A DNA stretch of 34,664 nucleotides, taken from the NCBI GenBank assembly GCA_963844965.1, contig CAWJQC010000003.1, positions 1 through 34,664 of the forward strand. The letters are read 5' to 3'. Below the pieces are notes generated by a model that ran no database searches, was not told the DNA's origin, and saw only the letters and a list, made by a program, of their open reading frames with translations. The number at the start of each line of letters is the position of its first letter. Positions within the stretch are counted from its first letter, which is position 1. Shown piece by piece: positions 3,001 through 20,888 of this stretch. The position numbers and the translations under genes were made by a program. This DNA comes from an uncultured bacterium (GTDB lineage Bacteria; Patescibacteriota; Minisyncoccia; UBA6257; 2-01-FULL-56-20).

Positions 3001-4627
3001 ATTTATCACGTTACTTCCACCGCTTTCCGCACCGGCGCTTCTTCCACTTGTGAAACAGCCAATCCCACGACCGACAACCGCTGGTGCTACCTCGGAGTCG
3101 TCTCTTCCACTGGTTCCTGTGTGAGCGGCACGAATTACAACGAAACCGATACCGTTGCACTTTACTACTTCGCCGATTCCACGGGCAGCCAATCGCCGAC
3201 CTCAAGTTATCCCACGCAGGATTGGGTGGCTTACGCCGTGGCGGTGGACAAGGAGGGTGCGACATCCAGTGTCACTAACTCAACTTCCTCCAACGTGGAC
3301 GTTGTCGTCCTCACGGGCTTTAACGTTTCGCCCGCGTCCTCAACCTACGGCACGCTCCTCGTCGGCCAGAACACCAGCTCCACGAACCAAATCCACTATG
3401 TGAGCAACGCCGGCAATTCCTCAACAACCCTCGCCATATCCGGTACCGCCTTCAGGTGACGGTTTGGGACATTTCCTGGCAACGAGTTCCCAGCATTACG
3501 CGACTTCTTCCTTCACATTCGGCGGAGCGGAACAGCAGTTGAGTGATTCCTCGGCGACCGTGAGCGGTTTCAATACGATTCCGTCGCACATCAACGCGTC
3601 GCCAATCGTGCAGGCGTGGCAGACGAACCCAAATTCGCTGCCCGTTGCGCTTAATCATTACTCCGCCGTCGTTTACAACGGATATATTTATACGTTAGGT
3701 GGGGGTACCAATAATGTTTACTATGCTCCGATAAACTCCAATGGCACCATAGGCGTGTGGAAAACGAATCCGAACAATATGCCCGCTTCACTTATCTATA
3801 ACACGGCTGCCGTTGCCTATAACGGATACATATATTCAATCGGAGGCGAGGATAATGGAGTCGGCGTTAACACCTCCAGTGTTTTCTATGCTCAGATAAA
3901 CGCTTCAAGCACCGGCACGTGGTATAAAAATCCCAATTCCCTGCCTACGGCGCTGGAGTACAACTCGGCTGTCGTCTGGAATGGCTATATCTACAATCTC
4001 GGCGGCACCGCAAATACAGGCAACGGTAACGGAGGCACCACTACGGTTCTCTATGCCCAAATCAACACCTCCAGCACCGGCGCGTGGACGACAAATCCGA
4101 ATTCACTGCCGAGCGGACTGGCAGCTTTTGCTGCCGCCGCCTATAACGGCTATGTGTATGTTATCGGGGGATATGTTAATGGCAGCGGTCTCGCCTCCAC
4201 CGTCTATTATGCTCCGATAAACTCCGACCACACGCTTGGCGCCTTTCAGACGAACTCCAACTCTCTGCCGAGCGCACTTGATTTCCTCTCAGCCATCGCC
4301 TATAACGGATACCTCTATGTGATAGGAGGAGAAACCGGTTCCGGCGCTACCTCCTCGGTTTTCTACGCCGCGATAAATTCCACGGGGTCGGTCGGAGTAT
4401 GGCAAAATGCCGCCTCTCTTCCGGACTCAAACGAACAAAGCTTTGCCGTTGTCTCAAACGGCTATGCCTATCTCGTGGGCGGCAGTAACGGGACGAACAA
4501 CACCTCCAGCGTCTTCTATGTATCTCTGGACAACCGCCCGATCTACTGGGGCGCGACCGCCCCCTTGCGTTCCGCCGCCGGCAACTACCAGAGCACCGTA
4601 ACCTACACGGCGGTGTGGAGCCAATAA
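1..4627 (+). pseudogene. Kelch-like beta-propeller surface protein paralogue. It is 5'-truncated by the window edge and broken by at least 6 frameshifts. Its 3' part is rearranged, with a Kelch block inserted into the shared C-terminal domain.
   Basis: Frame 3 is open from nt 3 to 1055. ORFs then alternate frames (793-1215, 1280-1657, 1851-2393, 2390-2830, 2785-3459, 3464-4627). Each resembles consecutive segments of the paralogue at 5735-8999. Repeated 'SAVAYNGYIYTIGG...SVFYAQIN...GxW' units look like Kelch repeats. The segment 3464-4627 is intact and about 90% identical at nucleotide level to 6240-7140. Confidence 0.6.
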
Positions 4628-4630
4628 AAA

Positions 4631-4662
4631 AATTAACGACATCGCAAGTCGTTAATTTTTTT
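4631..4662 (+). terminator. Rho-independent terminator hairpin (aattaacgac / atcgcaa / gtcgttaatt) followed by a T7 run. It belongs to the TTAACGACATCGYAAGTCGTTAA palindrome family.
   Basis: Perfect 10-bp stem plus T-run directly after the TAA at 4625-4627. Confidence 0.6.
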
Positions 4663-4716
4663 ATAAGACCTATAGGTCCTATACGACTTATACGACCTAT
4701 AGGTCTTATAGGTCTT
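4663..4716. repeat. Tandem 8-9 bp units TATAGGTC / TATACGAC / TATAAGAC (array 1 of 5 around the 4HB gene).
   Basis: Direct reading: ataagacc tataggtcc tatacgac ttatacgac ctataggtc ttataggtc. Confidence 0.8.
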
Positions 4717-5479
4717 GTTTCTTTTTCTTCTCCCTCGCTTCTTTCAGAATTTTTTCTATCATCTCGTCGGTTTCTTTCTCAGCTTCTTTTTCTTTCGTCA
4801 AAATTTTCCTCAGCTTCTGTTCCCGCGGTTCGAAAATCGCGCCGTTTGCTTCATGCTCCGCTCTCACTGCTCTTATCTGCATGTCCAGAAGATAATTGGT
4901 TTGGTTGATAAGACAGATAAGGCAGTTTGCCGCCTCTTCGGGATTTTCAAGATAGGTCTTATAGGTCGTATAGGACTTATCAATCCTATCAATCCTATCA
5001 GTCCTATCAGTCCTATCAATCCTATCAGTCCTATCAGTCCTATCCGTCCTATCCGTCCTATCCGTCTTATAAACCAATTGCCGAACCGCAAGCGCCCTCG
5101 GGTTGTCCTTCTTCCAGATTTGGAAATTCCGCTGGCGCAGAAAATCGGAGTAATCTTCCAGCAGTTCTTCAAAGGAAGCCCGCGCGACGCCGAGAAGAAA
5201 AATTTCGGTTTTCGGCGAGTTCTTTCCGGCGGCTGCGCCCTCTACGATGTTTTGTTTTCCTGAACGTGCCGCCTGCATCATCTGGTCGCTTTGGCGCGTA
5301 AAATGATAAGTCGTATAGGTCTTATATGTCCTATCCGACCTATCCGTCTCATCGGTCTTATCCGACTTATCGAACCCGGACCCGCGGGGTTCAACGTACC
5401 GGCGGCAAAACTCCGCGGTCATGTCGCAAATTACGGTTGCCTGTTCGTAGGATTTCAAATTTTTGTAAGTGGGCGGCAT
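4706..5479 (-). CDS. Four-helix-bundle protein (PF05635-like, '23S rRNA intervening sequence protein' family) carrying two in-frame tandem-repeat insertions.
   Basis: The core reads 'QMMQAARSGKQNIVEGAAAGKNSPKTEIFLLGVARASFEELLEDY' and matches the 4HB motif 'QL.RS..S...NI.EG..R.S..EF..FL.IA.GS..E'. A 9-bp repeat GTCCTATCA x10 is translated in frame as TDRTDRTDR. Start is placed at Met33 (5479) because upstream codons lie inside a repeat array. Confidence 0.5.
   Translation of the reverse strand: MPPTYKNLKSYEQATVICDMTAEFCRRYVEPRGSGFDKSDKTDETDRSDRTYKTYTTYHFTRQSDQMMQAARSGKQNIVEGAAAGKNSPKTEIFLLGVARASFEELLEDYSDFLRQRNFQIWKKDNPRALAVRQLVYKTDRTDRTDRTDRTDRIDRTDRTDRIDRIDKSYTTYKTYLENPEEAANCLICLINQTNYLLDMQIRAVRAEHEANGAIFEPREQKLRKILTKEKEAEKETDEMIEKILKEAREKKKKQDL
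4953..5073. repeat. Tandem array of about 13 units of 9 bp (GTCCTATCA / GTCCTATCC / ATCCTATCA) plus TATAGGTC units, inside the 4HB ORF.
   Basis: Seen directly. Period 9, so the reading frame is preserved. Confidence 0.85.
5306..5376. repeat. Tandem 8-9 bp units (TATAGGTC / CTATCCGAC family), array 3, inside the 4HB ORF.
   Basis: Seen directly. Confidence 0.75.
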
Positions 5480-5500
5480 CGTTTCGGTTTTGGTTTTTTT

Positions 5501-5561
5501 ATGCGTCCCATGCGTCTTATAGGTCCTATAAGACCTATACGTCTTATAAGTCGTATAGTAG
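5501..5561. repeat. Tandem 8-9 bp units (ATGCGTCC / TATAGGTC / TATAAGAC), array 4.
   Basis: Seen directly. Confidence 0.75.
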
Positions 5562-5606
5562 ACCCGCCGGTACAACTTATCAACATCTCCAAAAACAACG
5601 GAGCAG

Positions 5607-5615
5607 TGTTAGAAT
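5607..5615 (+). promoter_or_regulatory. TGTTAGAAT extended -10-like element (one of 4 identical copies in the window).
   Basis: Exact 9-mer TGnTAnAAT upstream of the 5735 gene. The same 9-mer occurs at 9270, 9568 and 27544, each upstream of a + strand gene. Confidence 0.35.
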
Positions 5616-5654
5616 TAGAGAAAGCGGGCATCGCGGCCCGAGGTTTTTGGTATT

Positions 5655-5720
5655 AAGTCCTATGCGTCCTATAAGTTCTATTGGCCTTATAAGTCCTATG
5701 CGTCCTATAAGACCTATAAA
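5655..5720. repeat. Tandem 8-9 bp units (TCCTATGCG / TCCTATAAG), array 5.
   Basis: Seen directly. Confidence 0.75.
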
Positions 5721-5734
5721 AAACCGTTCGCATT

Positions 5735-8700
5735 ATGAATAAGCACTTTGCCCTTGCGCTCATAATCATTGCCTCCGCGATAGTCGTTGCCGGCGGCGTT
5801 GTCGGCGTCGTTTTGGGCGACAGCACGTCGCAGATGAACCTCGGGGTTTTGAACATAACGCCGCGGCGGCCGATACTGAATTATCCTGCGCCGAACTCAA
5901 CTATTTCGTACGCGGGCAGCACTTTTCAGATAACGGCGACGAAGCCCACGGGCGGCGGCAGTTACGTGCAGTACAAACAAGTGATTTATCAGAACGAGGC
6001 CTGCACGCAGGTCGTGCAGACAAACGACGAAACGGCGTCGCAAACCGGCTGGAGCGGCGAGAACGCTTCTGCGAGCGAGGCCTATGCCGCCGGAAACGCA
6101 ACCGGTTCTGCCGGTACCTTCACTTTACAGACGAACTTGGCGACCAATACCACTTACTGGTGGGGCGCGCAGGCCTACGACCCCGACACTGCGGGAAGCT
6201 GGGGCACGAGCACGCTCACGCGAGTGGACAACGCGTGGACTACGAACGCGAATTCCCTGCCGACCACACTTTCAATGTTCTATGCCGTTACTTACAATGG
6301 ATATATTTATGCGTTAGGAGGGTGCGCTAGCACTGTTTATTACGCTCCGATAAATTCCGGCGGCACTGTGGGTATATGGACGACGAATCCGAACAATATG
6401 CCTGCTTCACTTGGCAGTGACGTAGCCGCTGTCGCCTATAACGGATATATATATACAATCGGAGGGGGAGTTTGTGGCCCCAGTGTCAACACCACTACCA
6501 TTTTCTATGCCCAGATTAACGGCTCAAGCACTGGCCCGTGGCTCACAAACCCCAATCCGCTGCCCACAGCGCTTGAGCACAACTCAGCTGTCGTCTGGAA
6601 TGGCTATATCTACAATCTTGGTGGAAGCACATCAGTCGGTAACTGTGCCAATGGCACCACCACCGTCCTCTACGCCCAAATCAACGGCTCCAGCACCGGG
6701 GCGTGGCAGACAAATCCGAATTCGTTGCCCACCACCGTAACGTGCGCAGCCGCTGCCGTCTATAATGGCTACATATATGTGATTGGGGATGATGCCATAT
6801 ATTATTCTACTTCCAGTGTCTTCTACGCCCCGATAAACTCCGACCACACGGTTGGCGCCTTTCAGACAAACCCCAATTCCCTGCCGAGTGCGATTGGGGA
6901 CAACTTCGCCGTCGCCTATAACGGCTATATATATTTGATTGGGGGGGAGAATGCCGCTAGTGTTGCTACCTCCACCGTCCTCTACGCCGCGATAAATTCC
7001 ACAGGGTCGGTCGGTGTATGGCAAAATGCCGCCTCTCTTCCGAGCTTAAACAGATACGGCTCTGCCGTTGTCTCAAACGGCTATGCCTATCTTATGGGCG
7101 GCAATGACGGGACGAATGACACTTCCACTGTTCTCTATTCCCAAATCAACCAGCTCGGTTCCACCGCCGCCGAGGGCTGGATAAACAACTCCGCTCTCGC
7201 AAGTTCAATCTATCTGAACGATGCCCTTGCCTATAACGGCTACATTTACTCAACAGGAGGAACATCGGACGGCACGAACGGAACAACAACCGTGAATTAC
7301 GCCATGCTGAACTCCAACGGCACCCTGGGCAACTGGCAAACGACGGCAGCTCTTCCCGCGAACACCGTCCAGCACGGAGCATTCGCCTATACGAACTCAG
7401 GCGGCACGACCCTCCTCTATACAATAGGCGGCGGCACCACGGTAGGAGCTGCAGGAAACAAGGTGAACCAGGCGACGGTCAACACGAACGGCACCTTGGG
7501 AACCTGGAGCGCTGCCGTTTCGGCAAACCTTCCGGCAAACTACGAGAACAGCTTCACGGGAGCGGCGAACGGCTACGCCTATCTCGTGGGAGGGGATAAC
7601 GGCACGAATGCCACAAGCGCCGTCCTCTACGGCCTCATAAGCTCCACGGGTACTATCAAGAACTGGTCTTCAACGAACCCTCTTCCCGCTGCCGTAACGA
7701 ATCAGGGAGGCATAATCCTGAACAACGTCATTTACGACATCGGCGGCAGCACGGATATCGCGGCTGCGAACATCACGACTACCGTTAACTACGCTCCCAT
7801 CAATTCCAACGGTTCTGTCGCGAGCTGGACAGTGAGCACATCTCTGCCTGCTCCCATCATCCAGCCGGACGTTGAGACCTGGAACAACTTCATCTATGTC
7901 ATCGGCGGCTCGTCAACCGTGGCCTACGGAGGAGCGACGACAACGGTTCTCTACGCCGTTCCAGCCGGCAACCAAAGTAGCTCCGGCTTCATAGTCCAGT
8001 CCAGCGGCACCTTGTCGTCATGGCTTGCCGCCACCCCTCTTCCTTCTCCTCTTTACGAGGAGGGTTCGGCTGTAGCAGACGGCTATCTCTATACCGTGGG
8101 AGGCAAGAACTCTTCGGGAGCCACTACGACCGTTCAAAACACCGGACTTTATACTTCCTGCATAGCGTTCAATTCGGTGACGAACTACGCGCCGTCGGTT
8201 TCCGCGGTTTCCTTGAACGGCGGCAACGCGCTTACCCTGACGGCCAACGCCACGACGAGCTTCAGCATAAATTATTCCGTGACCGACCCGAACGGCTGTT
8301 CCAATATCGCGAGCGTAACCTCCACCGCCTTCCGCACGGGAGTCGCCGGTGCTTGCGCCACGGCGAATCCCGCGACCGACAACCGAAATTGCTACCTGAG
8401 TGTCGTCAACTCCACGAGTTCCTGCGCGGGCACGAACTACAACGAAACCGATACTGTCGCTCTTTATTATTTCGCCGATTCAACGGGTATCACTACCTCA
8501 AGTTACCCAACCCAGCACTGGGAGGCCTACGCCACGGTCTTGAGCAATTCGGGCTTGACCGCGAGCGCCACTTCTTCCAACGTGGACGTGAACGTCCTCT
8601 CCGCCATAAACGTGACGGAGCCACTTCCAGTGTCATTAATTATGGTGCTTTATCGCAAAACGCGAATACCGGTTTGTGAATCAGACAACGACGGTGCAGA

Positions 8701-8999
8701 ACGCCGGAAATTCTTCCACGACACTTCAGATTTATGCGTCGCAGGTTTTGACTTCCGGCACGAGCACAATACCGGCGGCCTACCAGCACTATGCGACTTC
8801 TTCCTTCACCTTTGGCGGCAACGAGCAGCAGCTTACGACAAGCACGAACCCCGCCTTCGTTCCCGGATTTGTACTCACCGTTCCCACGAGCACGGCTTCG
8901 GTCCAAAAATTGACATACTGGGGCGCTGGCACGCCGGCCGGCCAGGCGGGCGGCAGTTATCAGGGCACGACTATGTTCGCGGCAGGGTTTTCACAATAG
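5735..8999 (+). CDS. Large secreted surface protein. It has an N-terminal signal anchor, an Ig/FN-like module, about 20 Kelch-like propeller repeats and the shared roughly 240-aa C-terminal domain. It needs two -1 frame changes near 8617 and 8677.
   Basis: ORF 5735-9058 runs into out-of-frame low-complexity text after 'SAINVT'. The conserved C-terminal sequence continues in the other two frames as 'GATSSVINYGALSQNANTGL' and then in ORF 8676-8999 as 'NQTTTVQNAGNSSTTLQIY...WGAGTPAGQAGGSYQGTTMFAAGFSQ*'. These match the C-termini of the 12570 and 16027 genes. Confidence 0.65.
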
Positions 9000-9002
9000 T
9001 TA

Positions 9003-9236
9003 CAAAGTCAAAATTCAAAAGGCAAAAGTCAAAAGTTAAAGTAAAAAATCAAAAATGAAATACTTTTTACATTTGACATGCAATTTTGACCTTTGAGTTT
9101 TAACTTTTGACATTATCTGAGCTGACTTTTGATTTTTGCCTTTTGACCCCGAGCCCTGCGTACTGAAACAAGAACGCGACGACTTTTGACATTTGACCTA
9201 TACTTTTGACTTTTGAATTTTGCCTTTTGACCTTAA
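9003..9236. repeat. Inverted arrays of the 8-mer GTCAAAAG / CTTTTGAC. There are about 6 units on the + arm (9003-9060) and about 10 on the - arm (9066-9236).
   Basis: Seen directly. A large imperfect palindrome centred near 9062, with no gene inside. Confidence 0.75.
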
Positions 9237-9361
9237 TTACCCTTGTGTATAAAAAAAACAGGTGAGTGGTGTTAGAATTATAAAAAGGGGAGGGCGTTCC
9301 CTCGGTTTTTGTTAGAAAGAGTTCGGCGGTTCCATGTTCTATGTTACATGCTTCATGTTAT

Positions 9362-9466
9362 ATGAATAAGAGAATTACATTCAGTTTGCTGATTTTTGCG
9401 GTAATTATGATTGGCGGTTTTTTGTTCGCGCCGAAGGCGCAGGCGGCGATTTCATTCGTGATATAA
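9362..9466 (+). CDS. Possible 34-aa peptide that is essentially a signal peptide (MNKRITFSLLIFAVIMIGGFLFAPKAQAAISFVI).
   Basis: ATG followed by a hydrophobic core and an AQA motif. It could be an N-terminal remnant of a surface-protein gene. Confidence 0.2.
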   Translation: MNKRITFSLLIFAVIMIGGFLFAPKAQAAISFVI

Positions 9467-9567
9467 TAGGGTTTAGGTGCGGATATTTGGCTATGTGAAG
9501 TTTCGTAATTCAAGGTATGATAAGTTAAGTCCAACGCGCCCCCATGCGTCTTCTGTTATGTCTTATG

Positions 9568-9576
9568 TGTTAGAAT
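9568..9576 (+). promoter_or_regulatory. TGTTAGAAT extended -10-like element, 99 nt upstream of the DGR target gene. It is followed by an imperfect 18-bp inverted repeat at 9583-9621.
   Basis: Exact copy of the 9-mer. The hairpin is gtcaaccctgttagaaac / gtttctaacagggtcaac. Confidence 0.35.
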
Positions 9577-9674
9577 AATTAGGTCAACCCTGTTAGAAAC
9601 TACGTTTCTAACAGGGTCAACGAGAATAATGATAAACTTAAAGGTCAAAAATAAATAATTAATTCAATACAATT

Positions 9675-10349
9675 GTGAACAAAACAACGGGCAGAATAAA
9701 AGAAATTGCGCGGAACAAAAAGGCAAAAATCGGGCTCTTAATCTGCGCCGTGATTGCGGCAATATTATCCGGCTACCTCATAGTCAAAGCTCTCTCGTTT
9801 GTTGATAATTTCACCACCACCAATTACGTGTCAAGCGTGTGGCACACGCAAGTGGCGACTTCTTCGGGCGTTGCCGAATTGCAGGCGAAAACTTGCAATA
9901 CTATTTCCACCTCAACCTGGTTTTGCTCCGCCACTTCCACCTCCATATGTTTGAACGACCTTGGCGACGGCGACTACATTATAGTTGCCCAAGCCGATAG
10001 CGGCCACCTGGCGTGGAAAAATGACGATACTGCCTGCTCTCGGCCGCAATGCGAGCAAGACGGCCCAGTGGACGGAAACAATCTGGTTGCCGACAACACG
10101 GTAAATTTCAGCGATTACGCGGCGCGGGCTGCCTGCCAAGCGATTGGCGGCCGTTTGCCGACGCGAAACGAATTGGGGTGCTTGTACAACAACTCATCAA
10201 CGTTCGGCGGTAACTTTGCTGCGGACTTCTACTGGTCTTCTGCCGAGGACGATGCCGCGGACGCCTACTACGTGTATTTCGCGAATGGCGGCGTGAGCAG
10301 CTACGGCAAGACCTACGCCTACTACGTCCGCTGCGTCCAAGGGTGGTAA
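9675..10349 (+). CDS. DGR target protein. It has an N-terminal membrane anchor, a Cys-rich region and a C-terminal DUF1566/FGE-like (C-type-lectin fold) domain that carries the variable repeat.
   Basis: GTG start. The C-terminus reads '...LPTRNELGCLYNN...FAADFYWSSAEDDAADAYYVYFANGGVSSYGKTYAYYVRCVQGW*', the classic DUF1566-type ending. Its last 128 nt align to the TR with A-only mismatches. Confidence 0.8.
   Translation: MNKTTGRIKEIARNKKAKIGLLICAVIAAILSGYLIVKALSFVDNFTTTNYVSSVWHTQVATSSGVAELQAKTCNTISTSTWFCSATSTSICLNDLGDGDYIIVAQADSGHLAWKNDDTACSRPQCEQDGPVDGNNLVADNTVNFSDYAARAACQAIGGRLPTRNELGCLYNNSSTFGGNFAADFYWSSAEDDAADAYYVYFANGGVSSYGKTYAYYVRCVQGW
10215..10342 (+). other. DGR variable repeat (VR).
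   Basis: 128 nt, colinear with the TR at 11061-11188 with no indels. There are 14 mismatches, all at positions where the TR has A (TR AAC codons read as TTC, GAC, TAC, AGC or GGC in the VR). A shared GC-rich 3' end 'cgtccgctgcgtccaagg' could be the IMH (initiation of mutagenic homing) element. Confidence 0.85.
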
Positions 10350-10392
10350 GATTTGGAATTTGGGCATTTGAGGATTTGTGGATTGGGTTGTA

Positions 10393-10460
10393 GTTGGTAG
10401 CTTGTAGCTGGTAGGTAGTAGGGAATTCCTACAAGCTAAAAAGCTACAAGCTAAAAAGCT
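10393..10460. repeat. Hairpin-forming repeat (GTAGCTTGTAGCTGGTAGG ... CTACAAGCTAAAAAGCTACAAGCTAAAAAG) on the left flank of the 4HB gene.
   Basis: 'agcttgtag' and 'ctacaagct' are reverse complements around gaattc. A similar copy sits on the right flank. Confidence 0.7.
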
Positions 10461-10462
10461 GA

Positions 10463-10825
10463 ATGAAAATAAATTCATATACAGACCTGATTGTTTGGCA
10501 AAAAGCAGTTGATTTAGTTGTGGAAGTTTATAATCTGACTGAGAAATTTTCCAAAAGCGAACTTTTTGGTCTAACTTCACAAATGAGACGGGCAGCAGTT
10601 TCTATTCCGTCTAATATTGCCGAGGGCAGGAGGAGAGGAACAAGAAAAGATTTTTGCCATTTTTTGGTTATCGCTTTTGGTTCAGGAGGAGAATTGGAAA
10701 CCCAAATAATAATTGCCAAGAAACTAAACTTTATAAAAATAGGCGAGTATTCAAAGGTCGATTTGTTATTAGACGAGGTTATGCGCATATTGAACGTCAT
10801 GATTCATAACCTGCAGGTTCATTAG
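10463..10825 (+). CDS. Four-helix-bundle protein (PF05635 / '23S rRNA IVS protein' family).
   Basis: 'DLIVWQKAVDLVVEVYNLTEKFSKSELFGLTSQMRRAAVSIPSNIAEG...ELETQIIIAKKL' is a near-consensus member. Confidence 0.8.
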   Translation: MKINSYTDLIVWQKAVDLVVEVYNLTEKFSKSELFGLTSQMRRAAVSIPSNIAEGRRRGTRKDFCHFLVIAFGSGGELETQIIIAKKLNFIKIGEYSKVDLLLDEVMRILNVMIHNLQVH

Positions 10826-10885
10826 CTGGTAGGTCGTAGCCTGTAGGAATTTACAAGCTAAAAAGCTACTAGCTACAAACTAATT
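10826..10885. repeat. Right-flank copy of the GGTAGG...CTACAAGCTAAAAAGCTAC hairpin repeat.
   Basis: ctggtaggtcgtagcctgtaggaatttacaagctaaaaagctactagctacaaac. Confidence 0.7.
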
Positions 10886-11060
10886 CGGCCGGAGTCTTTA
10901 ATCACGCAGCGGCTCAAGCCGCGCGGGTTAAAGAGAGTTTGCTGATATAAACCACGATTTCGCCGCCCCGTTAGGGAGCTGTGAATGTTGGGCTAAACTA
11001 ACAGGGCATTGTTGGCAAGCAGCTGTTTTACGGCTGCTGAGACAGTCCAGCGCGAAATAT

Positions 11061-11188
11061 TTTGCTGCGGACAACTACTGGTCTTCTGCCGAGAACGATG
11101 CCGCGAACGCCTACAACGTGAATTTCACGAATGGCGGCGTGAACAACAACAACAAGACCAACGCCAACTACGTCCGCTGCGTCCAAGG
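11061..11188 (+). other. DGR template repeat (TR).
   Basis: AAC-rich (reads as AADNYWSSAENDAANAYNVNFTNGGVNNNNKTNANYVRCVQG*). Every difference from the VR is at a TR adenine. Confidence 0.85.
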
Positions 11189-11227
11189 TTGATTTATAAA
11201 AGCGAAAATCGCCGATATTTCAAAAAA

Positions 11228-11584
11228 ATGCGCAACACCGAGCGATTGCCTCTTTATCACAAGACATACGGACTAATCAAGCATTTATACGGCGTGATCA
11301 GGAGCTTTCCCAAGGAATATAAATATTCTATGGGGAGCGAAATCATGAATCTTTCGTGGAAATGCCTTGACCTTATTATTGAAGCGAACGCCTACCCCAA
11401 TGCTCAAAAGAGCGTGAAAGTCGCCGAATTAAGCGCGGCATACGATAAATTAAAAATGCGGCTGCGGATGAGCCAGGAAATCAACCTGACATCAGCCGGC
11501 CAATTCGCTCATCTTGAAGAAAATTACATGCTGGAAATAGGGAAAATGATTGGCGGCTGGAAAAAATGGGCGGGGGCAGAATAA
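11228..11584 (+). CDS. avd: Avd (DGR accessory variability determinant).
   Basis: About 118 aa, placed between TR and RT. It matches the bAvd pattern (Y..L..L..V.R.FPK.YKY..G..I....W.CLDLII.A...K.......LS...D.L...LR......I......H.E...LEIGKMIGGWKK) and has the C-terminal GGW motif. Confidence 0.7.
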   Translation: MRNTERLPLYHKTYGLIKHLYGVIRSFPKEYKYSMGSEIMNLSWKCLDLIIEANAYPNAQKSVKVAELSAAYDKLKMRLRMSQEINLTSAGQFAHLEENYMLEIGKMIGGWKKWAGAE

Positions 11585-11620
11585 ATTTCTAATTTCTAAT
11601 TGACCTAATTGATTTAAATA
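11584..11620. repeat. Left inverted-repeat arm (aatttctaatttctaattgacctaatt...) of a MITE-like element.
   Basis: Its reverse complement recurs at 11863-11900. The same family, without cargo, is at 28797-28887. Confidence 0.65.
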
Positions 11621-11833
11621 ATGTTCAATTCCAAAATCCCAAACAAAGATAAATATGATTTGGAAGAAAGAACCGCAAAATTCGGCGAAGAAGTTATCAG
11701 ATTTTGCCAAGAATTGCCCCAAAATGAAATAACCAGACCGATAATAAATCAGCTGATAAAATGCGCAAAATTATGGGTTGAAGCCAAAGAGTTAAATCTG
11801 ATTTTCAACGCAATCAACAATAAATTGAAATGA
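11621..11833 (+). CDS. Truncated 4HB-family gene fragment (N-terminal two-thirds only).
   Basis: 'YDLEERTAKFGEEVIRFCQELPQNEITRPIINQLI' matches the 'FDLEERL..FA..II.L...LPK......I..QL.RS' N-terminus of 4HB proteins. It lacks the C-terminal helices. Confidence 0.4.
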   Translation: MFNSKIPNKDKYDLEERTAKFGEEVIRFCQELPQNEITRPIINQLIKCAKLWVEAKELNLIFNAINNKLK

Positions 11834-11862
11834 CGCTTTTGGTTATTGGGATTTAGGATTTA

Positions 11863-11900
11863 TTTAGGTCAATTAGAGCAATTAGAATAATTAGAAATTA
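11863..11900. repeat. Right inverted-repeat arm (tttaggtcaattagagcaattagaataattagaaatta).
   Basis: Its reverse complement matches the left arm at 11584-11620. Confidence 0.65.
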
Positions 11901-11903
11901 CCC

Positions 11904-13040
11904 ATGGCCATCTTCACCTATGAAAACCTGTATCGCGCGTATCTTGACTGCCGGCGCAATAAAAGAAAAACGATTAACGCGCTGAAATTTGAGATTGATT
12001 TAGAAAAGAATTTGTCTTTACTGCTTGAAGAATTAACGAGCCGTCGATACCAGCCAGGCCGCTCGATTTGTTCGTGGTCAAATATCCCCAGCCGCGGGAA
12101 ATATTCGCGGCTGATTTCCGCGACAGGATAGTGCACCATCTGCTGGTCGGCCAAATTCTGGCCGAAAGCGAAAAAAGCTTTTTTTACAACAGTTTCGCTT
12201 GCCGCAAAGGAAAAGGTACGCACAAGGCGGTCGGACTTTTGAGAAGATACCTGAAAAGCGCTTCCAGAAGCGGAAAAGAGAAAATATTTTACCTGCAATT
12301 GGATATCGGAAGTTTTTTCGTGTCAATCCGGCACCGCGTTTTATTTTCCATTTTCAGCGAATTTGTCGGCAAATTGAACCGGACCGAAGAATGGAAACAA
12401 GAAATTTTATGGCTGGCTGAAAAAATCATTTTTTACGAACCAGCCAAAAATTGCGAAATAAGAGGCGATAAGAGCTTGCTCGCGCTGATACCGCCGCACA
12501 AGTCGCTTTTTAACGCGCCGCCAGAACGGACTGCCGATTGGCAATTACACCTCGCAATTTTTCGCCAATATGTATCTGAACCGATTGGATTATTTCACCA
12601 AGCAGACGCTTAAGGAAAAATTTTATATCAGATATGTTGACGACATTGTGATTTTAGGAAAAAGCGCCGGCGCGCTTAAAGGTCTGATTCCCGAAATTAA
12701 CAGGTTTTTGAAAAAAGAATTGGAGATTGAACTGAATCTTGACAAGATCAAGTTCAAAAACGTTTCGGCGGGCATAGATTTTCTGGGCTATTTTGTGAAG
12801 CCGGATTACACGCTTGTCCGCCGCCGGGTGGTTAAGAATTGCAAGGAAAAAATCCGCCCTGCCCCCGAAGTTTCGAAAAAATTGGTCTCGCAAGCCAATT
12901 CTTATCTGGGGCATTTTATCCACGCCGCGAGCTACGGATTGAGAAAAATGATTTCAGAGAGGTTAATCAAAGCGGACAATTCTATACATTTTAGCAATGG
13001 CTATAAATCGATATTCGCAATAATTGGCGGGCAAAGAAAA
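11904..13040 (+). CDS. DGR-type reverse transcriptase. It is frameshifted (frame 0, then +2 near 12065, then back to 0 near 12520) and read through in frame into the downstream surface-protein gene.
   Basis: It carries these DGR-RT motifs:
- 'YQPGRSI / FVVKYPQPREIFAADFRDRIVHHLL'
- 'SFACRKGKGTHKAV'
- 'IFYLQLDIGSFF'
- 'GLPIGNYTSQFFANMYLNRLDYF' (found in frame 0)
- 'YIRYVDDIVILG' (the YxDD box)
- C-terminal 'SQANSYLGHFIHAASYGLRKMI'. Confidence 0.8.
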
Positions 13041-14975
13041 ATAATCAAAACGGCGGTTGCCGCGGCAGTTCTGCTCGCGGGCTTTTCGTTTGCTCATTCC
13101 GCCTCCGCCGCTTATTTCAAGACCGGCTCTTTGGTTTCCGCTAACCTCTTGGACGGCTTGACCAACGTCGGCGCGATTACCCAATTTAACGCCACAACTT
13201 CCATCGCGGCGGGCACTTCGGTAAGCGTCCAATTTTCCCGCAATAAACTTACCTGGTACAGCGCCTCCGGCACGGCGTTCGCCACAAGTTCGCTTTCGGA
13301 CGGCGCGAACAGCATTGACTTGTCGGCGTTGGGGTGGACCGGCCCGATTTTTTATTACAAGCTGCAATTCGCGACGAATGATTCAAGCATCACTCCGACT
13401 GTATCGGGCGTGGCCGTGAATTACAATTACAGCTCCGGACCGACGTACGAGTATTTCGGGCAAGGGTCTTTGGTTTCCGCCAATGTGCTTGACGGTCATA
13501 CGGACGTCGGCGCAATTACCGGATTTTCCGCTTCAACTACCGTGCCGGCCAGCACGACAATAACAGTCCAGTTTTCGCGCGACAAATTGGTTTGGTACAA
13601 CCATTCCGGCGTGGCGTACGCCGAAGACAGCTTGTCCAACGGCTCCAATGTCGTTAATTTGTCCGCTTTGAATTGGACCGGTCCGCTGATTTATTATAAA
13701 TTGCATTTTACCACAAGCGATGTCGGCCAGACGGCGGCTATTTCATCGGCCGAGATTGATTATTCAGCCGGTTCCGGCTCGGTATATTTCAAGCAAGGAA
13801 CATTGGTTTCAACAAATCTTTTGGCTGGCGGAGGGACGCTTAGCGGAAACGAATTGTTCGGCTATAACATTTCTTCTTTGCCTTCTGGAACAACGGTTCA
13901 GGTCCAATTCAGCACCAGTAGCGCCAATTGGTTCAGTTCCACTGGCACCGCTTGGGCGTGGGACACCTTGTCCAGCGGCAGCCACCTTACCGCTTCAACC
14001 GCGATTAACTTGTCCGCGCTTGGCTGGACCGGCGCCAGTTTTTATTACAAATTAGAATTCACAACGACTGATGCCGGCACAACTCCGACAGTCGCTCAAA
14101 TATCGCTCTTTACGCCGGGAGCGCTGCCCATCGTTACGGTTCTGATGACGGTCGTCTCAAGCAGCGCTCCCATCGTATCCGCCGTATCGGTGAACGGCGG
14201 CAATTCCATCACGCTCACGCCCGCGACAACGACCCCGATCAGCGTCAATTTCACGGTTACGGATTATTCCGGCTGTTCAAACGTTTTCACGAGCGGCAAC
14301 GTTACGACCACGCTTTACCGCATGGGCGTCGGGAGTTCGTGCGTGGCGGACAACCGCAACTGCTACAGGACTTCCTCGCAAACCAACAATTGCTCGGGCA
14401 GCGGTGCCAACGCCACGGCAACTTTGAATCTTTACTATTTCGCCGATTCCACCGGCAGCCAATCGCCGACCTCAAGTTATCCATCCGACCACTGGCAGGC
14501 CTATGTGCAGGCGCTGGACGGGACGGCGAACGCCACGGGCACCGCCACGTCAACCGTGAACGACGTTAATGTCTTGACGGCCATCACCGTTACAACTTCT
14601 TCCATCAACTACGGCACGATGTCGCCGAATGCGACGACCTCGGCCGCGAGCGACCAGCTCGCGACCGTGCAGAACGTCGGCAATTCGTCCACGACTTTGA
14701 AAATTTCCGGCACGGCGCTCGTAATGTCCTCGCCTTACGACGCGTTCGCAACGTCCAGCCAGCATTACGCCACATCCACTTTCCAGTGGAACGCCAGCGG
14801 CCCGGAGCAGCAACTTCAGCAAACACAAACAACGGTTCCGGGATTTTCTCTGACTACCCCCACCTCCACGAGTGCCGTGAGCGGTAACACTTATCGGGGC
14901 GTGCAAATTCCCGGCAGCGCGCAAAGCGGCGTGCACGTGGGGATGATAACGTTCAGCTCAAATTGGAGCCAATAA
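13041..14975 (+). CDS. Secreted surface protein with three tandem repeats of about 100 aa and the shared C-terminal domain. The start is uncertain because there is no canonical in-frame start codon.
   Basis: A signal-peptide-like 'KIIKTAVAAAVLLAGFSFAHSASA' is followed by three units of 'YFKxGSLVSxNLLDG...VQFS..KL.WY..SG.A.....LS.GSN...LSAL.WTGP..YYKL.FTT.D'. The tail is 'VSAVSVNGGN...DNRNCY...LYYFADSTGSQSPTSSYP...TVQNVGNSSTTL...QHYATSTF...WSQ*'. Confidence 0.55.
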   Translation: MIKTAVAAAVLLAGFSFAHSASAAYFKTGSLVSANLLDGLTNVGAITQFNATTSIAAGTSVSVQFSRNKLTWYSASGTAFATSSLSDGANSIDLSALGWTGPIFYYKLQFATNDSSITPTVSGVAVNYNYSSGPTYEYFGQGSLVSANVLDGHTDVGAITGFSASTTVPASTTITVQFSRDKLVWYNHSGVAYAEDSLSNGSNVVNLSALNWTGPLIYYKLHFTTSDVGQTAAISSAEIDYSAGSGSVYFKQGTLVSTNLLAGGGTLSGNELFGYNISSLPSGTTVQVQFSTSSANWFSSTGTAWAWDTLSSGSHLTASTAINLSALGWTGASFYYKLEFTTTDAGTTPTVAQISLFTPGALPIVTVLMTVVSSSAPIVSAVSVNGGNSITLTPATTTPISVNFTVTDYSGCSNVFTSGNVTTTLYRMGVGSSCVADNRNCYRTSSQTNNCSGSGANATATLNLYYFADSTGSQSPTSSYPSDHWQAYVQALDGTANATGTATSTVNDVNVLTAITVTTSSINYGTMSPNATTSAASDQLATVQNVGNSSTTLKISGTALVMSSPYDAFATSSQHYATSTFQWNASGPEQQLQQTQTTVPGFSLTTPTSTSAVSGNTYRGVQIPGSAQSGVHVGMITFSSNWSQ

Positions 14976-14983
14976 TCTTAAAA

Positions 14984-15036
14984 TTAACGACATCGTAAGT
15001 CATTAATTAATAATTAACGATGTCGTAAGTCGTTAA
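14984..15036. repeat. Two REP-like palindromes (TTAACGACATCGTAAGTCATTAA and TTAACGATGTCGTAAGTCGTTAA) between convergent genes.
   Basis: Seen directly. They are the same family as the hairpin at 4631-4657 and the palindrome at 15752-15774. Confidence 0.75.
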
Positions 15037-15722
15037 TCGAGCGAAACGTTTTTGACCTCTTCTATTTCAATATCCTTAAGCCACTGTTTTATATTTTTTT
15101 CGTATTCCGCGGGGCCGCCGAAAAATTTCATAAGAAATTCTCTATTAGTAACCGACGGAAAATTTTTCTTGCCGAGATAATCAAGGTGGCTTGACCAGCG
15201 GTAATTATCCAAGAATTTCATCGCTTCTCTATGGTTCTTGATCTCGCGTTCGCGCCATTCCGGCGCCGCGAGGTCCAGCGGGTTCACGTGTATGTAATAG
15301 GGGATATGGTTGAAATGCGATTCGTTCTTTATCACCATGGATTTGTACCTGCCTTCAAATAACGTCCCCTTCCTTTCGTATTTCTGATTGAAATATTTTG
15401 CGTATCCCACGTTGATTTTTTTCATAAACGCCGTGATAGCTCCATCCGTGCGCGGGGAAAGAAGGAGATGATAGTGGTTGGGCATTAGACAAAACGCGTA
15501 TATATCAACCAAGAGTTTTCTTGGTTCTCTTGGCTTTGATTTGCCGCCAATATAACGACTTGCGACATCGTTAGATTGGTTGAATCTATAAAAAGCGTTA
15601 TTTACCCTGTTTTGGTCGTTAAATTCAAAAAGATCGTGGATAAACCTCAAATAATCCTGTTTATCAAGGAAGATTTTGCGTTTATCCACGCCCCTGTTCA
15701 GTGTGTGGTAGACATCAGCCAT
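15033..15722 (-). CDS. REP-associated tyrosine transposase (RAYT), a Y1 HUH transposase of the IS200 type.
   Basis: HuH motif 'CLMPNHYHLLL', then 'GAITAFMKKINVGYAKYFNQKYERKGTLFEGRYKS', then 'YYIHVNPL'. REP-like palindromes flank it on both sides. Confidence 0.7.
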   Translation of the reverse strand: MADVYHTLNRGVDKRKIFLDKQDYLRFIHDLFEFNDQNRVNNAFYRFNQSNDVASRYIGGKSKPREPRKLLVDIYAFCLMPNHYHLLLSPRTDGAITAFMKKINVGYAKYFNQKYERKGTLFEGRYKSMVIKNESHFNHIPYYIHVNPLDLAAPEWREREIKNHREAMKFLDNYRWSSHLDYLGKKNFPSVTNREFLMKFFGGPAEYEKNIKQWLKDIEIEEVKNVSLD

Positions 15723-15868: not shown

Positions 15869-16956
15869 ATGAACAAAAGCAACTCAGGTCTGACTCAAAT
15901 CGGCAAGGTTTTGCTCGTAGGGGTCGTCATCCTCGGGGTTTTTGGCTTTTTCTCAACTTTTCTCGGAGGCATCGGCGGTTTTCCGAGCAGGCAATCGGGT
16001 TCACCGGGGGAAACTGGATTCTCGGTTTGGGTTTCTTCGGCATTAATGTGGCTAACGCCACGGACACAACCAATACTCCCACAAGCACGGTCACCGTCGG
16101 AAACTCCGCCCCGACAGTTAGCGGCATAAAACTGAACAACAACAGCGATATCATTCTCACCGTCAACGCCACGACGGCGGTCGTCCTGAACTACACCGTA
16201 GCCGACAACAACGGCTGCTCCGACATCAACACGAACGCAATGACCTCCACATTGTTCGTGGCGAGCTCCTCGCCGTTCGTCGTTTGTAATTCCACATATC
16301 CGACGACAAGCAGCGTCTATTGCTACCTGTACTCTTCGCGAACAACGAGCAGCTGCAGCGGAAGTTCCTACAACGTCTCCGACACTTTCTGGCTTTATTA
16401 TTACGCCGCCGGCACGGGCAACGCCTCGGCGACCGACGGGTCATCCAGCTTTTGGGACGCCCACATAGTTGCGGTTGACAAGTCCTTAGCAACAGGCGAT
16501 GGGACCTCTTCCAACCAAAACGTCACCACTCTCATCGGGCTCACCGTCACGACCTCCACCATCAACTATGGCACCATGGCGGGCGGCGCCACCTCAAGCG
16601 TCGCGAACATCCTGACCCAAATCGCCACCACGACCAACGCCGGCAACGCGACGACATCCCTCAAACTTTCATCGCTGATAGATCTGTACAGCAGCGGCAC
16701 CGGCCAAGTCATCTCTTCAACCTACCAGCACTACTCCACATCGTCCTTCACTTACGGCGGCAACGAGCAGCAGCTTCAGGGGTCGTCAACGCCGCAGCTC
16801 GTCACCGGCTTAACGCTTTGGGTTGTGACGAGCACCGCGAGCGGCGCTTCAAGCAGCAAGGCGACCTGGTGGGGACTTCAGGCTCCCAGCGTGGCAACCG
16901 GCACTTACAACGGCCTCGTTACTTTCTCGTCGGTATGGACGGGAACGCAACAATAA
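15869..16956 (+). CDS. Small secreted protein with a long signal anchor and the shared C-terminal domain. It has one frameshift in a G5 homopolymer at 16006-16010.
   Basis: ORF 15869-16129 and ORF 16027-16956 join cleanly if one G is added: '...SGSPGGNWILGLGFFGINVANA|TDTTNTPTSTVTVGNSAPTVSGIKLNNNSD...'. The tail is 'QHYSTSSFTYGGNEQQL...VTFSSVWTGTQQ*'. Confidence 0.6.
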
Positions 16957-18167: not shown

Positions 18168-18237
18168 ATTAACGAGTTAACGAGTTAACGGGTTTTTTGT
18201 TATTTTTATAACTCGTTAACCCTTTAACTCGTTAACT
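18168..18237. repeat. GTTAAC-based palindromic repeats (TTAACGAGTTAACGAGTTAACGGG ... AACTCGTTAACCCTTTAACTCGTTAAC).
   Basis: Inverted copies that could form a terminator-like hairpin. The family recurs at 20720-20888, 21541-21612, 23915-23975 and 27419-27500. Confidence 0.7.
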
Positions 18238-20719: not shown

Positions 20720-20888
20720 GTTAACGAGTTAACTTCTTTTCTTAACCGGTTGGTCGGTTATTGCGGTTAACGAGTTCGCGAGTTAACGAGTTAAAATCCA
20801 AACCCGTTAACTCGTTAACACGTTAACTCGCCAACTACATAACTGTTTGTTCGATAAATTAAACTCGTTAACACGTTAACTCGTTAAT
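20720..20888. repeat. Cluster of GTTAACGAGTTAAC-type palindromic repeats, about 10 units in both orientations.
   Basis: Seen directly. Fills the whole intergenic region upstream of sodA. Confidence 0.75.

Follow-up and report, generated by a model that had tools for sequence, protein, structure and literature searches.

Described systems closest to the locus

Diversity-generating retroelements (DGRs) of CPR/Patescibacteria were reportedly described by Paul et al. in 2017. They correspond to the 'CPR set' of Wu et al. 2018 (PMC5758913) and to 'clade 2' of Roux et al. 2021 (PMC8144416). These elements resemble the one analysed here in being cellular and chromosomal, in having a Patescibacteria-like context, an avd gene and a single adjacent target with a C-terminal VR, and in sometimes holding unrelated genes between the DGR genes. 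In their predominant architecture, B3, avd points the other way (Wu et al. 2018, PMC5758913), whereas all parts of our element lie on one strand in the order target-TR-avd-RT. CPR targets usually come without recognisable domains (Roux et al. 2021, PMC8144416), but in ours a membrane anchor and a DUF1566 domain can both be recognised. The element also differs from CPR DGRs in that its reverse transcriptase (RT) ORF is disrupted in the assembly and two four-helix-bundle (4HB) cassettes lie inside it.

Category 'd' (CLec2) of Wu et al., with VRs over DUF1566/DUF823/Fib_succ_major (PMC5758913), leads to a second comparison, the Legionella pneumophila DGR with its target LdtA. As in our element, the VR lies in the DUF1566-type, C-type-lectin-like C-terminus of a surface-anchored protein and avd is present, but the two elements differ in gene order and their RTs are distant relatives. 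Where LdtA is a lipoprotein, the target here has an N-terminal transmembrane anchor, and the GC-rich hairpin that follows the Legionella IMH is replaced here by an ATTTGG tandem array. The third comparison is the DGR of Bordetella phage BPP-1 (mtd-VR, avd, TR, brt), a phage tropism system, whereas ours concerns a cellular surface protein. Both have adenine-specific mismatches, a GC-rich VR 3' end and an Avd that is a four-helix-bundle protein. In BPP-1, however, the order is avd-TR-brt with a 140-nt spacer after the TR, whereas here the TR precedes avd; and its IMH and IMH* differ, with a cruciform after the IMH, whereas our candidates are identical and the tandem array comes next.

The element lies in a 34,664-nt stretch of DNA, hereafter the window, and consists of the following features:

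9675-10349, + strand: target gene, 224 aa, with an N-terminal membrane anchor, a Cys-rich middle and a predicted DUF1566/Lcl_C C-terminus
10215-10342, + strand: VR, codons 181-223 of the target, 128 nt, colinear with the TR
10321-10347, + strand: candidate IMH, the GC-rich invariant VR 3' end (ACTACGTCCGCTGCGTCCAAGG) plus the first diverging bases, assigned by position only
10350-10392, + strand: tandem array of 7-8-nt units (GATTTGGA ATTTGGGC ATTTGAGG ATTTGTGG ATTGGG), candidate acceptor-site marker
10382-10885, + strand: passenger cassette 1, with a 4HB gene (10463-10825, 120 aa) and long inverted repeats of tandem heptamers
10886-11060, + strand: pre-TR leader, starting GGCCGGAGTCTTTAA...AAAGAGAG, its sequence semi-conserved ahead of the TR in relatives
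11061-11188, + strand: TR, with 36 A and 12 AAY codons
11228-11584, + strand: avd, 118 aa, PF22296 bAvd
11585-11903, + strand: passenger cassette 2, with an internally deleted 4HB ORF (11621-11833, 70 aa) and inverted arms of about 55 nt
11904-13040, + strand: DGR RT, about 380 aa when stitched from three frame segments, with no stop codon as assembled

The order given in the earlier note, target(VR) - 4HB - TR - avd - 4HB fragment - RT, is thus present as claimed.

Adenine-specific repeats, avd and the reverse transcriptase

The recount that the earlier note had asked for bore out its claim of colinear, equally long repeats that differ only at adenines. An ungapped alignment of 10215-10342 against 11061-11188 contained 14 mismatches in 128 columns, every one at a TR adenine (VR positions 10227, 10228, 10248, 10260, 10269, 10275, 10281, 10297, 10300, 10302, 10305, 10306, 10314 and 10320), seven of them changed to T and seven to G. 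There was no non-A difference in the 128 columns. With 36 adenines among 128 nt, the probability that 14 random sites would all fall on A is 2.2e-9. All but one of the 36 TR adenines occupy codon position 1 or 2, all 14 VR changes are non-synonymous, and the theoretical repertoire is about 5e20 proteins. An A-masked scan of both strands found no second VR in the window. The TR itself is identical (100%) to a 989-nt contig that spans all of it in an independent Logan assembly (ERR10755942).

The C-terminus of the target is predicted to be a DUF1566/Lcl_C C-type-lectin-like domain, and on this the profile and the model agree with the DUF1566-type target first proposed. Pfam matched it to PF07603 Lcl_C (E 7e-10, 39.7 bits against a cutoff of 34.9), as it did all 52 homologues of about 215 aa. 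The AF2 model has an overall pLDDT of 82.6, rising above 90 at residues 100-224, with a helix at 15-40. Its best Foldseek match is the C-terminal domain of Legionella Lcl (8q4e, E 5e-5); C-type lectin domains and EgtB come next.

The small gene after the TR, earlier called bAvd-like, matched PF22296 bAvd (E 2e-16, 60.6 bits against a cutoff of 40) and, under the 80-bit cutoff, NF033474 DivGenRetAVD (NCBIfam; E 1e-18, 67 bits). Its orthologues adjoin the RT in nearly all related loci. The best solved-structure match of the RT is 8ub7_A, a 328-aa chain that we take to be Bordetella bRT (E 5.6e-35), while retron and group II RTs score about 1e-12; the RT motif pattern is also that of BPP-1. It is 45-75% identical to thousands of MAG-derived RTs, and the stitched protein aligns end to end with Patescibacteria RTs of 385-395 aa, the best of them at 75%. 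All 115 columns invariant across the window and six relatives are retained, with the IGxxxSQ and YVDD motifs present. The RT is a member of a large Patescibacteria/DPANN clade, and 65 of the 81 related genome loci contain an A-biased TR/VR pair.

Could the TR instead be a decayed partial duplicate of the target 3' end, beside an unrelated retron, group II or defence RT? Pfam does see only a generic RVT_1 domain in the RT, and NCBIfam has no DGR RT model. Against this stand the exclusive placement of mismatches on adenines, the AAY codon design, the adjoining avd, the RT's proximity to 8ub7_A with a common IGxxxSQ motif, its failure to reach any NCBIfam cutoff for group II, retron or Drt families, and the TR/VR cassettes around its relatives. 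We consider such an origin extremely improbable; adenine specificity and family context effectively refute it. The RT is of DGR type, as the earlier note had it, and the element is a genuine DGR, an identification that holds on every testable point.

Flanking sequences and stem-bounded cassettes

Identity between VR and TR ends at 10342/11188, and the first diverging bases are GTGGT after the VR and TTGAT after the TR. The GC-rich VR 3' end is, judged by its position, a plausible candidate IMH. Since the IMH and IMH* candidates are identical, the distinction between donor and acceptor must lie in the flanks, further downstream. The direction of transfer could then be set by the ATTTGG tandem array after the VR, as against TTGATTTAT...hairpin and then avd after the TR. 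The array (period 8, 4.6 copies by TRF) lies directly 3' of the target stop codon. Of 59 related loci, 28 have an ATTTG(G/A) array after the VR and none has one after the TR, compared to 12 of 545 other ORF ends (Fisher p 1e-22); in distant viral DGRs, an ATTTGG array follows the VR in 1 of 107. This array, directly 3' of the VR and absent after the TR, may be a new feature.

Upstream of the TR, the leader contains motifs common to the corresponding sequences of relatives, GGCCGGAUCU and AAAGAGAG(C)GGUUAAAAUCUAUUGCGC, and the region from the leader onward (10889-11400) folds with a z of -4.3. BPP-1 requires upstream RNA, and by this analogy the leader would be part of the template RNA. Just 3' of the TR, the stem-loop has 4 bp, compared to 9-13 bp in about half of the relatives; this weak stem was counted against the favoured explanation of the element.

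Both 4HB inserts named in the earlier note are real. The gene of cassette 1 matched PF05635 (Pfam, E 9e-39) and TIGR02436 (NCBIfam, E 5e-37), and its inverted repeats form a closing stem (fold z -3.8). The ORF of cassette 2 aligns at both ends with a 122-aa PF05635 protein (L045:9429-9794) across a 52-residue internal gap, and its arms (11590-11643 and 11838-11900) form a closing stem with a fold z of -4.3. The closest known counterparts are the 4HB proteins of 23S rRNA intervening sequences (PF05635 / TIGR02436), which are of the same family and likewise stem-enclosed, and GxxExxY small-ORF cassettes (PF13366 / TIGR04256). Unlike the intervening sequences, our inserts lie in intergenic regions of DGR protein genes, their arms are built from tandem 7-9-nt units and one ORF is internally deleted.

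We read both cassettes as passengers because the same type occurs outside the DGR (three more in the window, one 4HB and two PDDEXK_3, plus a solo stem), because PDDEXK_3, Bro-N or 4HB genes occupy the same DGR junctions in relatives, and because unexplained genes sandwiched inside CPR DGRs have a precedent (Wu et al. 2018, PMC5758913). Selfish or neutral, they would have inserted in the linker between VR and TR and at the avd-RT junction, leaving conserved DGR sequence untouched. Alternatively, they might be working parts, with RNase III cutting the stems to release a leader-TR-avd RNA, or with Avd-like 4HB proteins assisting the RT. The long stems do resemble rRNA intervening sequences and bracket exactly the leader-TR-avd module (10886-11584), PF05635 is a sister family of Avd, and relatives repeatedly have inserts at the same places. 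Inserts fill two of the three gaps between the DGR genes, but a rough estimate puts the probability of this arising by chance at about 0.07, too high to be compelling. Furthermore, most of the 81 loci lack an insert, the inserts that relatives do have contain genes of unrelated type (Bro-N and the PDDEXK_3 nuclease family), the cassette 2 ORF is internally deleted and identical designs are also found in parts of the window that have no DGR. Neither insert is present in L002, the closest relative with synteny, whose target (224 aa) is followed by the TR, avd, an RT that is intact at 394 aa and the same surface protein: a mere 19-nt AT linker separates its array from the GGCCGGA element, and its avd and RT overlap with nothing between. 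A functional role is therefore improbable, and we retain the passenger reading.

The reading frame of the reverse transcriptase

The earlier note had called the DGR complete, which is not supported for the RT as assembled: it is not one ORF, lacks a stop of its own and is fused to the downstream surface-protein ORF. It runs in frame a over 11904-12071, in frame b over 12071-12526 and in frame a again from 12528. The RT motifs quoted in that note are all there, but spread over two reading frames, FRDRIVHHLL and SFACRKGKGTHKAV lying in a different frame from the start codon and from GLPIGNYTSQ/YVDD. Three sites are involved:

12069-12073, + strand: frameshift site 1, TGTTC where relatives encode Cys-Phe (TGT TTC), one T missing
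12521-12527, + strand: frameshift site 2, CCAGAAC (7 nt) where relatives have three codons
13011-13045, + strand: expected RT end and start of the next gene, with no in-frame stop

Site 1 lacks one nucleotide at 12071, the base on which one tblastn segment ends and the next one starts. Site 2 is a 2-nt loss or a 1-nt gain; it has no obvious homopolymer, which was counted against assembly error. No stop codon was found at or near 13040, and the frame remains open as far as 14975. At 13021-13026, a TAA-TTG pair is in another frame than the RT and adjoins an A5 run; the RT of L002 ends in a stop that overlaps the ATG start codon of the homologous surface-protein gene (ATGA).

We favour indel errors in the assembly consensus, which probably account for the lesions, over recent inactivation because the RT damage is indel-only and every conserved residue is kept. 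Neighbouring kelch-repeat genes have the same indel-only pattern (a gapless chain of seven ORFs over 324-4627 and one shift at 8617-8679), and in L083, a related contig named in the style of long-read assemblies, the target, the RT and even lepA are frameshifted; both observations were counted in favour of assembly error. On the other side was counted that the RT as deposited cannot be translated as a single protein. The only near-identical RT protein on record is this contig's own fragment, and no independent assembly spans the RT.

The other possible, though rather doubtful, history is that of a fossil, in which the frameshifts and the lost stop are real, the VR is frozen in its last state and the cassettes are part of the decay. 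The RT is broken in the sole available assembly, two foreign cassettes have invaded the element and neighbouring surface-protein paralogues are broken too. The frameshifts are also uneven: the first 13 kb contains at least 10, yet target, avd and 4HB gene have no detected shift, and neither do the housekeeping genes from 13 to 33 kb, so the pattern does not come from purely random error. However, none of the three RT segments contains an in-frame stop codon and none of the 115 invariant columns is changed, whereas by a rough estimate three to four indels with the usual substitution excess should have hit several invariant residues. Moreover, VR and TR have no non-A differences, the net frame is regained past the second shift, and intact relatives tolerate inserts at the same junctions.

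If the element is a DGR whose RT sequence was probably damaged in assembly, its mode of action would follow that of BPP-1. An RT-Avd complex would bind an RNA that extends from the pre-TR leader through the TR into the start of avd, and reverse transcription would misincorporate at random opposite the 36 template adenines. The cDNA would then replace the VR, the 43 codons at the end of a disulfide-rich surface protein with a membrane anchor, re-randomising about 13 residues on its C-type-lectin-like (DUF1566/Lcl_C) domain.

Taken together, this DGR is a new member of a kind already common in the ultra-small CPR/Patescibacteria bacteria. We hold with moderate confidence to the reading as a whole, a chromosomal DGR of the Patescibacteria (CPR) clade whose RT lesions are most likely assembly errors. 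If they are, the element would be active now, or would have been until very recently.

Adenine-specific repeats and their target gene

Ungapped alignment of the variable repeat (VR, 10215-10342) with the template repeat (TR, 11061-11188) of the diversity-generating retroelement (DGR) gave 128 columns with 14 mismatches. All 14 lie at TR adenines, seven of which are changed to T and seven to G, and there are no differences at any other base. With 36 adenines among the 128 nt of the TR, the chance that 14 random sites would all fall on A is 2.2e-9. The recount thus confirms the adenine-only repeat pair described in the earlier note, and the pattern is far beyond chance. Similarity between the two repeats stops at 10342/11188, and a scan of both strands of the window, in which TR adenines were ignored, found no further VR. 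Read in the frame of the target gene, 35 of the 36 TR adenines occupy codon positions 1 or 2, the TR contains 12 AAY codons, and every one of the 14 differences alters an amino acid, giving the VR a theoretical repertoire of ~5e20 proteins. Between the end of the TR and the start of the reverse transcriptase (RT), 716 nt downstream, lie avd and a 319-nt insert.

Target, variable repeat and avd
9675-10349, target ORF of 224 aa, Pfam PF07603 Lcl_C (formerly DUF1566), above the gathering score
10215-10342, VR, codons 181-223 of the 224-codon target ORF
11228-11584, avd, PF22296 bAvd with 60.6 bits against a 40-bit cutoff

The target had been proposed to be a DUF1566 protein with a C-type-lectin-like fold, and both the domain search and the predicted structure support this. 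In addition to the PF07603 match of the target itself, all 52 of its homologues (~215 aa) carry the domain, and one of the few with a source name is labelled a Patescibacteria DUF1566 protein. An AlphaFold (AF2) model built on these 52 homologues has a pLDDT of 82.6 overall and above 90 for residues 100-224, which include the C-terminal domain. In a Foldseek search of the PDB, the model comes closest to 8q4e, the C-terminal domain of Legionella Lcl (E 5e-5); animal C-type lectin domains and EgtB, a protein with an FGE-sulfatase-like fold, rank next. The variable codons are located in the last four strands and loops, and the modeled N-terminal helix (residues 15-40) would fit a membrane anchor. 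Upstream of the gene there is a near-perfect 18-bp hairpin (9583-9621, GTTGACCCTGTTAGAAAC...GTTTCTAACAGGGTTGAC), and similar hairpins (AACCCCGTTAGAAA...TTTCTAACGGGGTT) directly follow the VR in some relatives (L007, positions 1033-1075; L056, just 3' of the VR).

Lineage and reading frame of the reverse transcriptase

The gene previously called bAvd-like matches its Pfam family above cutoff, as listed, and aligns over its full length to NCBIfam NF033474 (DivGenRetAVD) with 67 bits, which is under the 80-bit cutoff of that model. The RT contains GLPIGNYTSQ, corresponding to the IGxxxSQ of motif 4, and the YxDD motif as YVDD. A search with the stitched segments yields 6,903 relatives of the RT (E-value no higher than 1e-10), most of them ~385 aa long and the best 75% identical; the named sources among them are MAGs of Paceibacterota, Staskawiczbacteria, Nealsonbacteria and other Patescibacteria. 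Its best match among solved structures is 8ub7_A (E 5.6e-35), a 328-aa chain that we take from its sequence and length to be the Bordetella phage bRT, and retron-type and group II RTs match at ~1e-12 or weaker. We considered retron, group II and defence-associated (Drt, Abi) RTs and rejected them, as the protein is below all of the family cutoffs (NCBIfam group II, 90 bits against 300; retron, 53 against 235; Drt, below cutoff) and its PADLOC matches are generic RT similarity only. Rfam gave no match to a group II intron or any other RNA family across the whole window at gathering thresholds, nor any match within 9300-13200 at E up to 1. Furthermore, 65 of 81 related loci, taken from species-representative genomes, have an A-biased repeat pair (at least 80% of mismatches at A). 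By its sequence, the RT is assigned to the DGR lineage and not to the retron or group II RTs. Roux et al. 2021 described the RT clade as cellular and restricted to Patescibacteria (PMC8144416).

The earlier note had called this DGR complete, a description that the RT as assembled, which is not a single ORF, does not support. All of the RT motifs quoted at the time are present, but FRDRIVHHLL and SFACRKGKGTHKAV are read in a different frame from the start codon and YVDD.

Segments of the RT reading frame
11904-12071, frame 1, start codon and first 56 codons
12071-12526, frame 2, FRDRIVHHLL and SFACRKGKGTHKAV
from 12528, first frame again, GLPIGNYTSQFFANMYLN and YVDD

At the first frameshift (12071) one T is missing, and the window reads TGTTC where every relative encodes Cys-Phe. 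At the second (12521-12527), the 7 nt CCAGAAC stand in place of three codons in the relatives. The RT also has no stop codon: its frame stays open for 650 more codons, running via a signal-peptide-like KIIKTAVAAAVLLAGFSFAHSASA into a large surface protein, and the read-through product is part of an 801-aa ORF (12570-14975). In L002, a syntenic DGR locus from another genome, the RT does end in a stop, which shares bases with the ATG of the homologous gene downstream. The window has a TAA-TTG pair at 13021-13026 that is in the wrong frame and adjoins an A5 run, implying at least one further indel. Read-through of the same kind, from a small gene into a surface protein, is seen at 19394-20695, where a GxxExxY/PDDEXK_3 ORF is open in frame into a secreted cohesin-domain protein; the latter starts with an ATG of its own and a signal peptide at 19809, and a +1-frame TGA overlaps that ATG. 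We rejected programmed frameshifting in the RT: slippery heptamers and +1 contexts are absent from both sites, and two programmed frameshifts in succession would be, to our knowledge, unprecedented.

The evidence leans toward assembly error as the source of the RT lesions, for instance in unpolished strain-variable or paralogous regions. The damage consists of indels only, with no stop codon inside any of the three segments, and all 115 columns that are invariant in an alignment of the window with six relatives are kept. Likewise, the VR/TR pair is free of non-A differences, and the neighboring kelch-repeat surface-protein genes show the same indel-only pattern. A genuine and very recent inactivation of the RT is a serious but less probable explanation. 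It is favored by the crowding of frameshifts into the first 13 kb of the window and by the intact appearance of the target, avd and housekeeping genes (sodA-like, def, fmt, S41 peptidase and L9).

The first of the giant kelch-repeat paralogues (324-4627) is split into seven abutting ORFs in alternating frames, with at least six frameshifts and no nonsense codons. The second (5735-9058, with 8676-8999) has one frameshift near 8617-8679, ahead of a C-terminal domain that is common to the 801-aa ORF and 16027-16956. Frameshifts also occur in the target, the RT and even lepA of a related locus, L083 (7600-11300 and 14244-16033 of ena:ERZ25039512 contig_71664, a long-read-style name), so indel-rich assemblies of this lineage exist in the public record, a further point in favor of assembly error. 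L083 has the same S41-L9 synteny as the window, and its DGR carries a Bro-N gene between VR and TR.

We looked for a second assembly covering the RT by exact look-ups of the RT N-terminal ORF, the four-helix bundle (4HB) protein, the target and SOD, by a cluster look-up, and by searching for homologues of the stretch that contains both frameshifts; none was found. The window is itself an entire contig of 34,664 bp, present at NCBI and ENA, and the sole near-identical RT-segment protein on record is a 179-aa fragment from this same contig. At 90% identity, each of the nine window proteins that exact look-up recovered is a singleton in a set of 15 billion sequences. Three of these nine only (avd, the ORF of the avd-RT insert, and L9) occur in Logan run ERR10755942. 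An independent contig from that run (L001, 989 nt) spans the TR, avd and the insert and ends at 11885, with the VR outside it.

Hairpin-bounded cassettes and intergenic repeats

The closest syntenic locus, L002, has an intact RT of 394 aa that is 65% identical to that of the window and overlapped by avd. Its target is 224 aa long, its TR lies 218 nt past the VR, and its downstream protein is the same as that of the window. Compared with this locus, the window contains two insertions, and small ORFs in inverted repeats are also present outside the DGR.

Cassettes and related structures
~10382-10885, cassette 1, 120-aa 4HB gene, closed by a long stem
11585-11903, cassette 2, fills the avd-RT junction, ~55-nt arms fold into a closing stem
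4649-5723, minus strand, cassette outside the DGR, small ORF in inverted repeats
24837-25296, minus strand, cassette outside the DGR, small ORF in inverted repeats
28795-28890, solo stem, no ORF

The suggestion that both inserts within the DGR derive from 4HB genes is well supported. The gene in cassette 1 matches PF05635, the 23S rRNA intervening-sequence protein family (E 9e-39, 132 bits), and TIGR02436 (126 bits), in both cases above the curated cutoff. This cassette stands where L002 has a 19-nt AT linker, which runs from the array behind the VR to a conserved GGCCGGA... element. The 70-aa ORF of cassette 2 has no direct Pfam match; it aligns to a 122-aa PF05635 protein (E 7e-17) with ~52 internal residues gone. 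Extra genes occupy the same DGR junctions in related loci: besides the Bro-N gene of L083, a PDDEXK_3 gene lies between VR and TR in L007 (1104-1659) and between avd and RT in L013 (1978-2427), and 4HB genes adjoin avd in L070, L071 and L080.

Cassettes in the window and in L007/L013 carry either 4HB (PF05635/TIGR02436) or GxxExxY/PDDEXK_3 (PF13366/TIGR04256) ORFs, and their arms are 25-64-nt inverted repeats made of tandem 7-9-nt units. Outside the DGR, such arms were seen for the window's other 4HB cassette and for one of its two PDDEXK_3/GxxExxY cassettes; the second PDDEXK_3 ORF (19394) has a 10-nt tandem array just upstream. The cassettes look like an rRNA-IVS-like or MITE-like family dispersed between the genes of this genome and related ones, and we read them as passengers. 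An alternative in which their stems are RNase III sites that free a leader-TR-avd RNA has little support. Wu et al. (PMC5758913) remarked on unexplained genes lodged within CPR DGRs, and we suspect that these are this cassette family under the old name "S23 ribosomal protein".

Other mobile and repetitive sequences are present in the window. An IS200/Y1-type transposase gene (15033-15722, minus strand) is flanked by 30-nt direct repeats at 14978-15037 and weakly matches the REP-associated tyrosine transposase model NF047646 (43 bits, under cutoff); it may have a bearing on the hairpin-bounded cassettes. At the contig end (33500-34350, minus strand), overlapping frames encode an IS3-like integrase (rve). 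Many intergenic regions are made up of octamer arrays of TTAACGAG and its complement CTCGTTAA, which reach 11 copies and frequently form neighboring inverted blocks (18169-18237, 20766-20887, 21519-21570, 23907-23977 and 27462-27489), and heptamer arrays (AAAGTCA/TGACTTT) are found between the kelch gene and the DGR (9004-9231). These intergenic arrays may be a terminator or REP-like element. Oddly for a housekeeping gene, fmt (methionyl-tRNA formyltransferase, 23995-24855, minus strand) has two TTGGAAA arrays of ~4.3 copies each inside its coding region, one perfect (24351-24380) and one 91% matching (24608-24638). They encode FPISNFQFP and LSISNYQLPIS, and their unit resembles that of the array behind the VR.

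A tandem array behind the variable repeat

By homology to BPP-1 (Handa et al., PMC6182149; bioRxiv 10.1101/2023.10.23.563531), an RT-Avd complex would bind an RNA made up of the TR and the sequences upstream and downstream of it, and would copy the TR with misincorporation at adenines; the cDNA would then replace the VR. The GC-rich 22-nt 3' ends of the VR and TR, the candidate IMH and IMH*, are identical (ACTACGTCCGCTGCGTCCAAGG), so the candidate IMH alone cannot tell donor from acceptor. In DGRs with identical IMH and IMH*, recognition must extend downstream (Wu et al., PMC5758913), and here the two flanks diverge from 10343/11189 on. The TR is followed by TTGATTTATAAAAGC... in the window and by (T/G)GATTTTTA(G/A)CC in relatives, often with a hairpin thereafter; this hairpin is good in about half of the relatives and only 4 bp in the window. 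Single-sequence folding, and RNAduplex comparison of upstream and downstream TR flanks, in 21 relatives gave scores no higher than those of shuffled sequences for a conserved duplex or Avd-binding stem-loop (cf. Handa et al. 2024).

Straight after the stop codon that follows the VR, at 10350-10392, is a tandem array of 7-8-nt ATTTG(G/A) units: GATTTGGA ATTTGGGC ATTTGAGG ATTTGTGG ATTGGG. Counting two TTTG[GA] motifs separated by 2-4 nt within 80 nt as an array, we found one 3' of the VR in 28 of 59 related loci and 3' of the TR in none of the 59. Arrays also follow 12 of 545 other ORFs of at least 150 aa, and several of those 12 are further VRs (Fisher p 1e-22 for enrichment after VRs). The TTTG-to-TTTG spacing is 7 or 8 nt in 72 of 110 cases. 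Loci with an array at the equivalent site include L002, L004, L019, L023, L033, L058, L061 and L063, among others, and the RTs of the array-bearing clade are only 45-65% identical. In distant viral DGRs (RT ~30% identical), the array follows 1 of 107 VRs, and we rejected it as a universal DGR feature. The array is also found behind some remote second VRs that have no downstream DGR gene (L051, L063 and L081), which argues against a mere promoter role, and a function as promoter of the TR or avd is accordingly disfavored. A scan for a promoter or terminator after the target gene gave nothing above shuffle expectation.

Only 34% of DGRs have GC-rich inverted repeats, the known post-IMH element (Wu et al., PMC5758913). 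The distribution of the array hints, tentatively and with the odds against it, at a cis element labelling the site of cDNA integration (the acceptor) in a Patescibacteria/DPANN clade of DGRs. If so, it would stand in for the GC-rich cruciform known from Bordetella and Legionella and would explain one-way transfer in DGRs whose IMH and IMH* are identical. We found no earlier description of such an array in the DGR literature searched, which did not extend to Paul et al. 2017.

In every testable respect but one, an intact RT ORF in the assembly, the element belongs to the DGR family. Among named systems, it is closest to the CPR DGRs of Paul 2017, Wu 2018 and Roux 2021, and its target type is like the Legionella LdtA class, category d (DUF1566/CLec2) of Wu et al. 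(PMC5758913). Although its proteins form singletons at 90% identity, the system itself is textbook; with DGRs already known to abound in CPR bacteria, a further example contributes little on its own. It does illustrate how a DGR can be called "complete" on motifs alone while its RT is frameshifted, and that in indel-prone MAG assemblies live DGRs may look dead and dead ones alive. Insertions of small-ORF cassettes bounded by hairpins are tolerated in both the VR-TR linker and the avd-RT junction, which constrains the start and end of the functional DGR RNA. Finally, how the acceptor is recognized in DGRs that lack a cruciform or a distinct IMH* is a long-standing question, for which the ATTTGG array offers a testable candidate.
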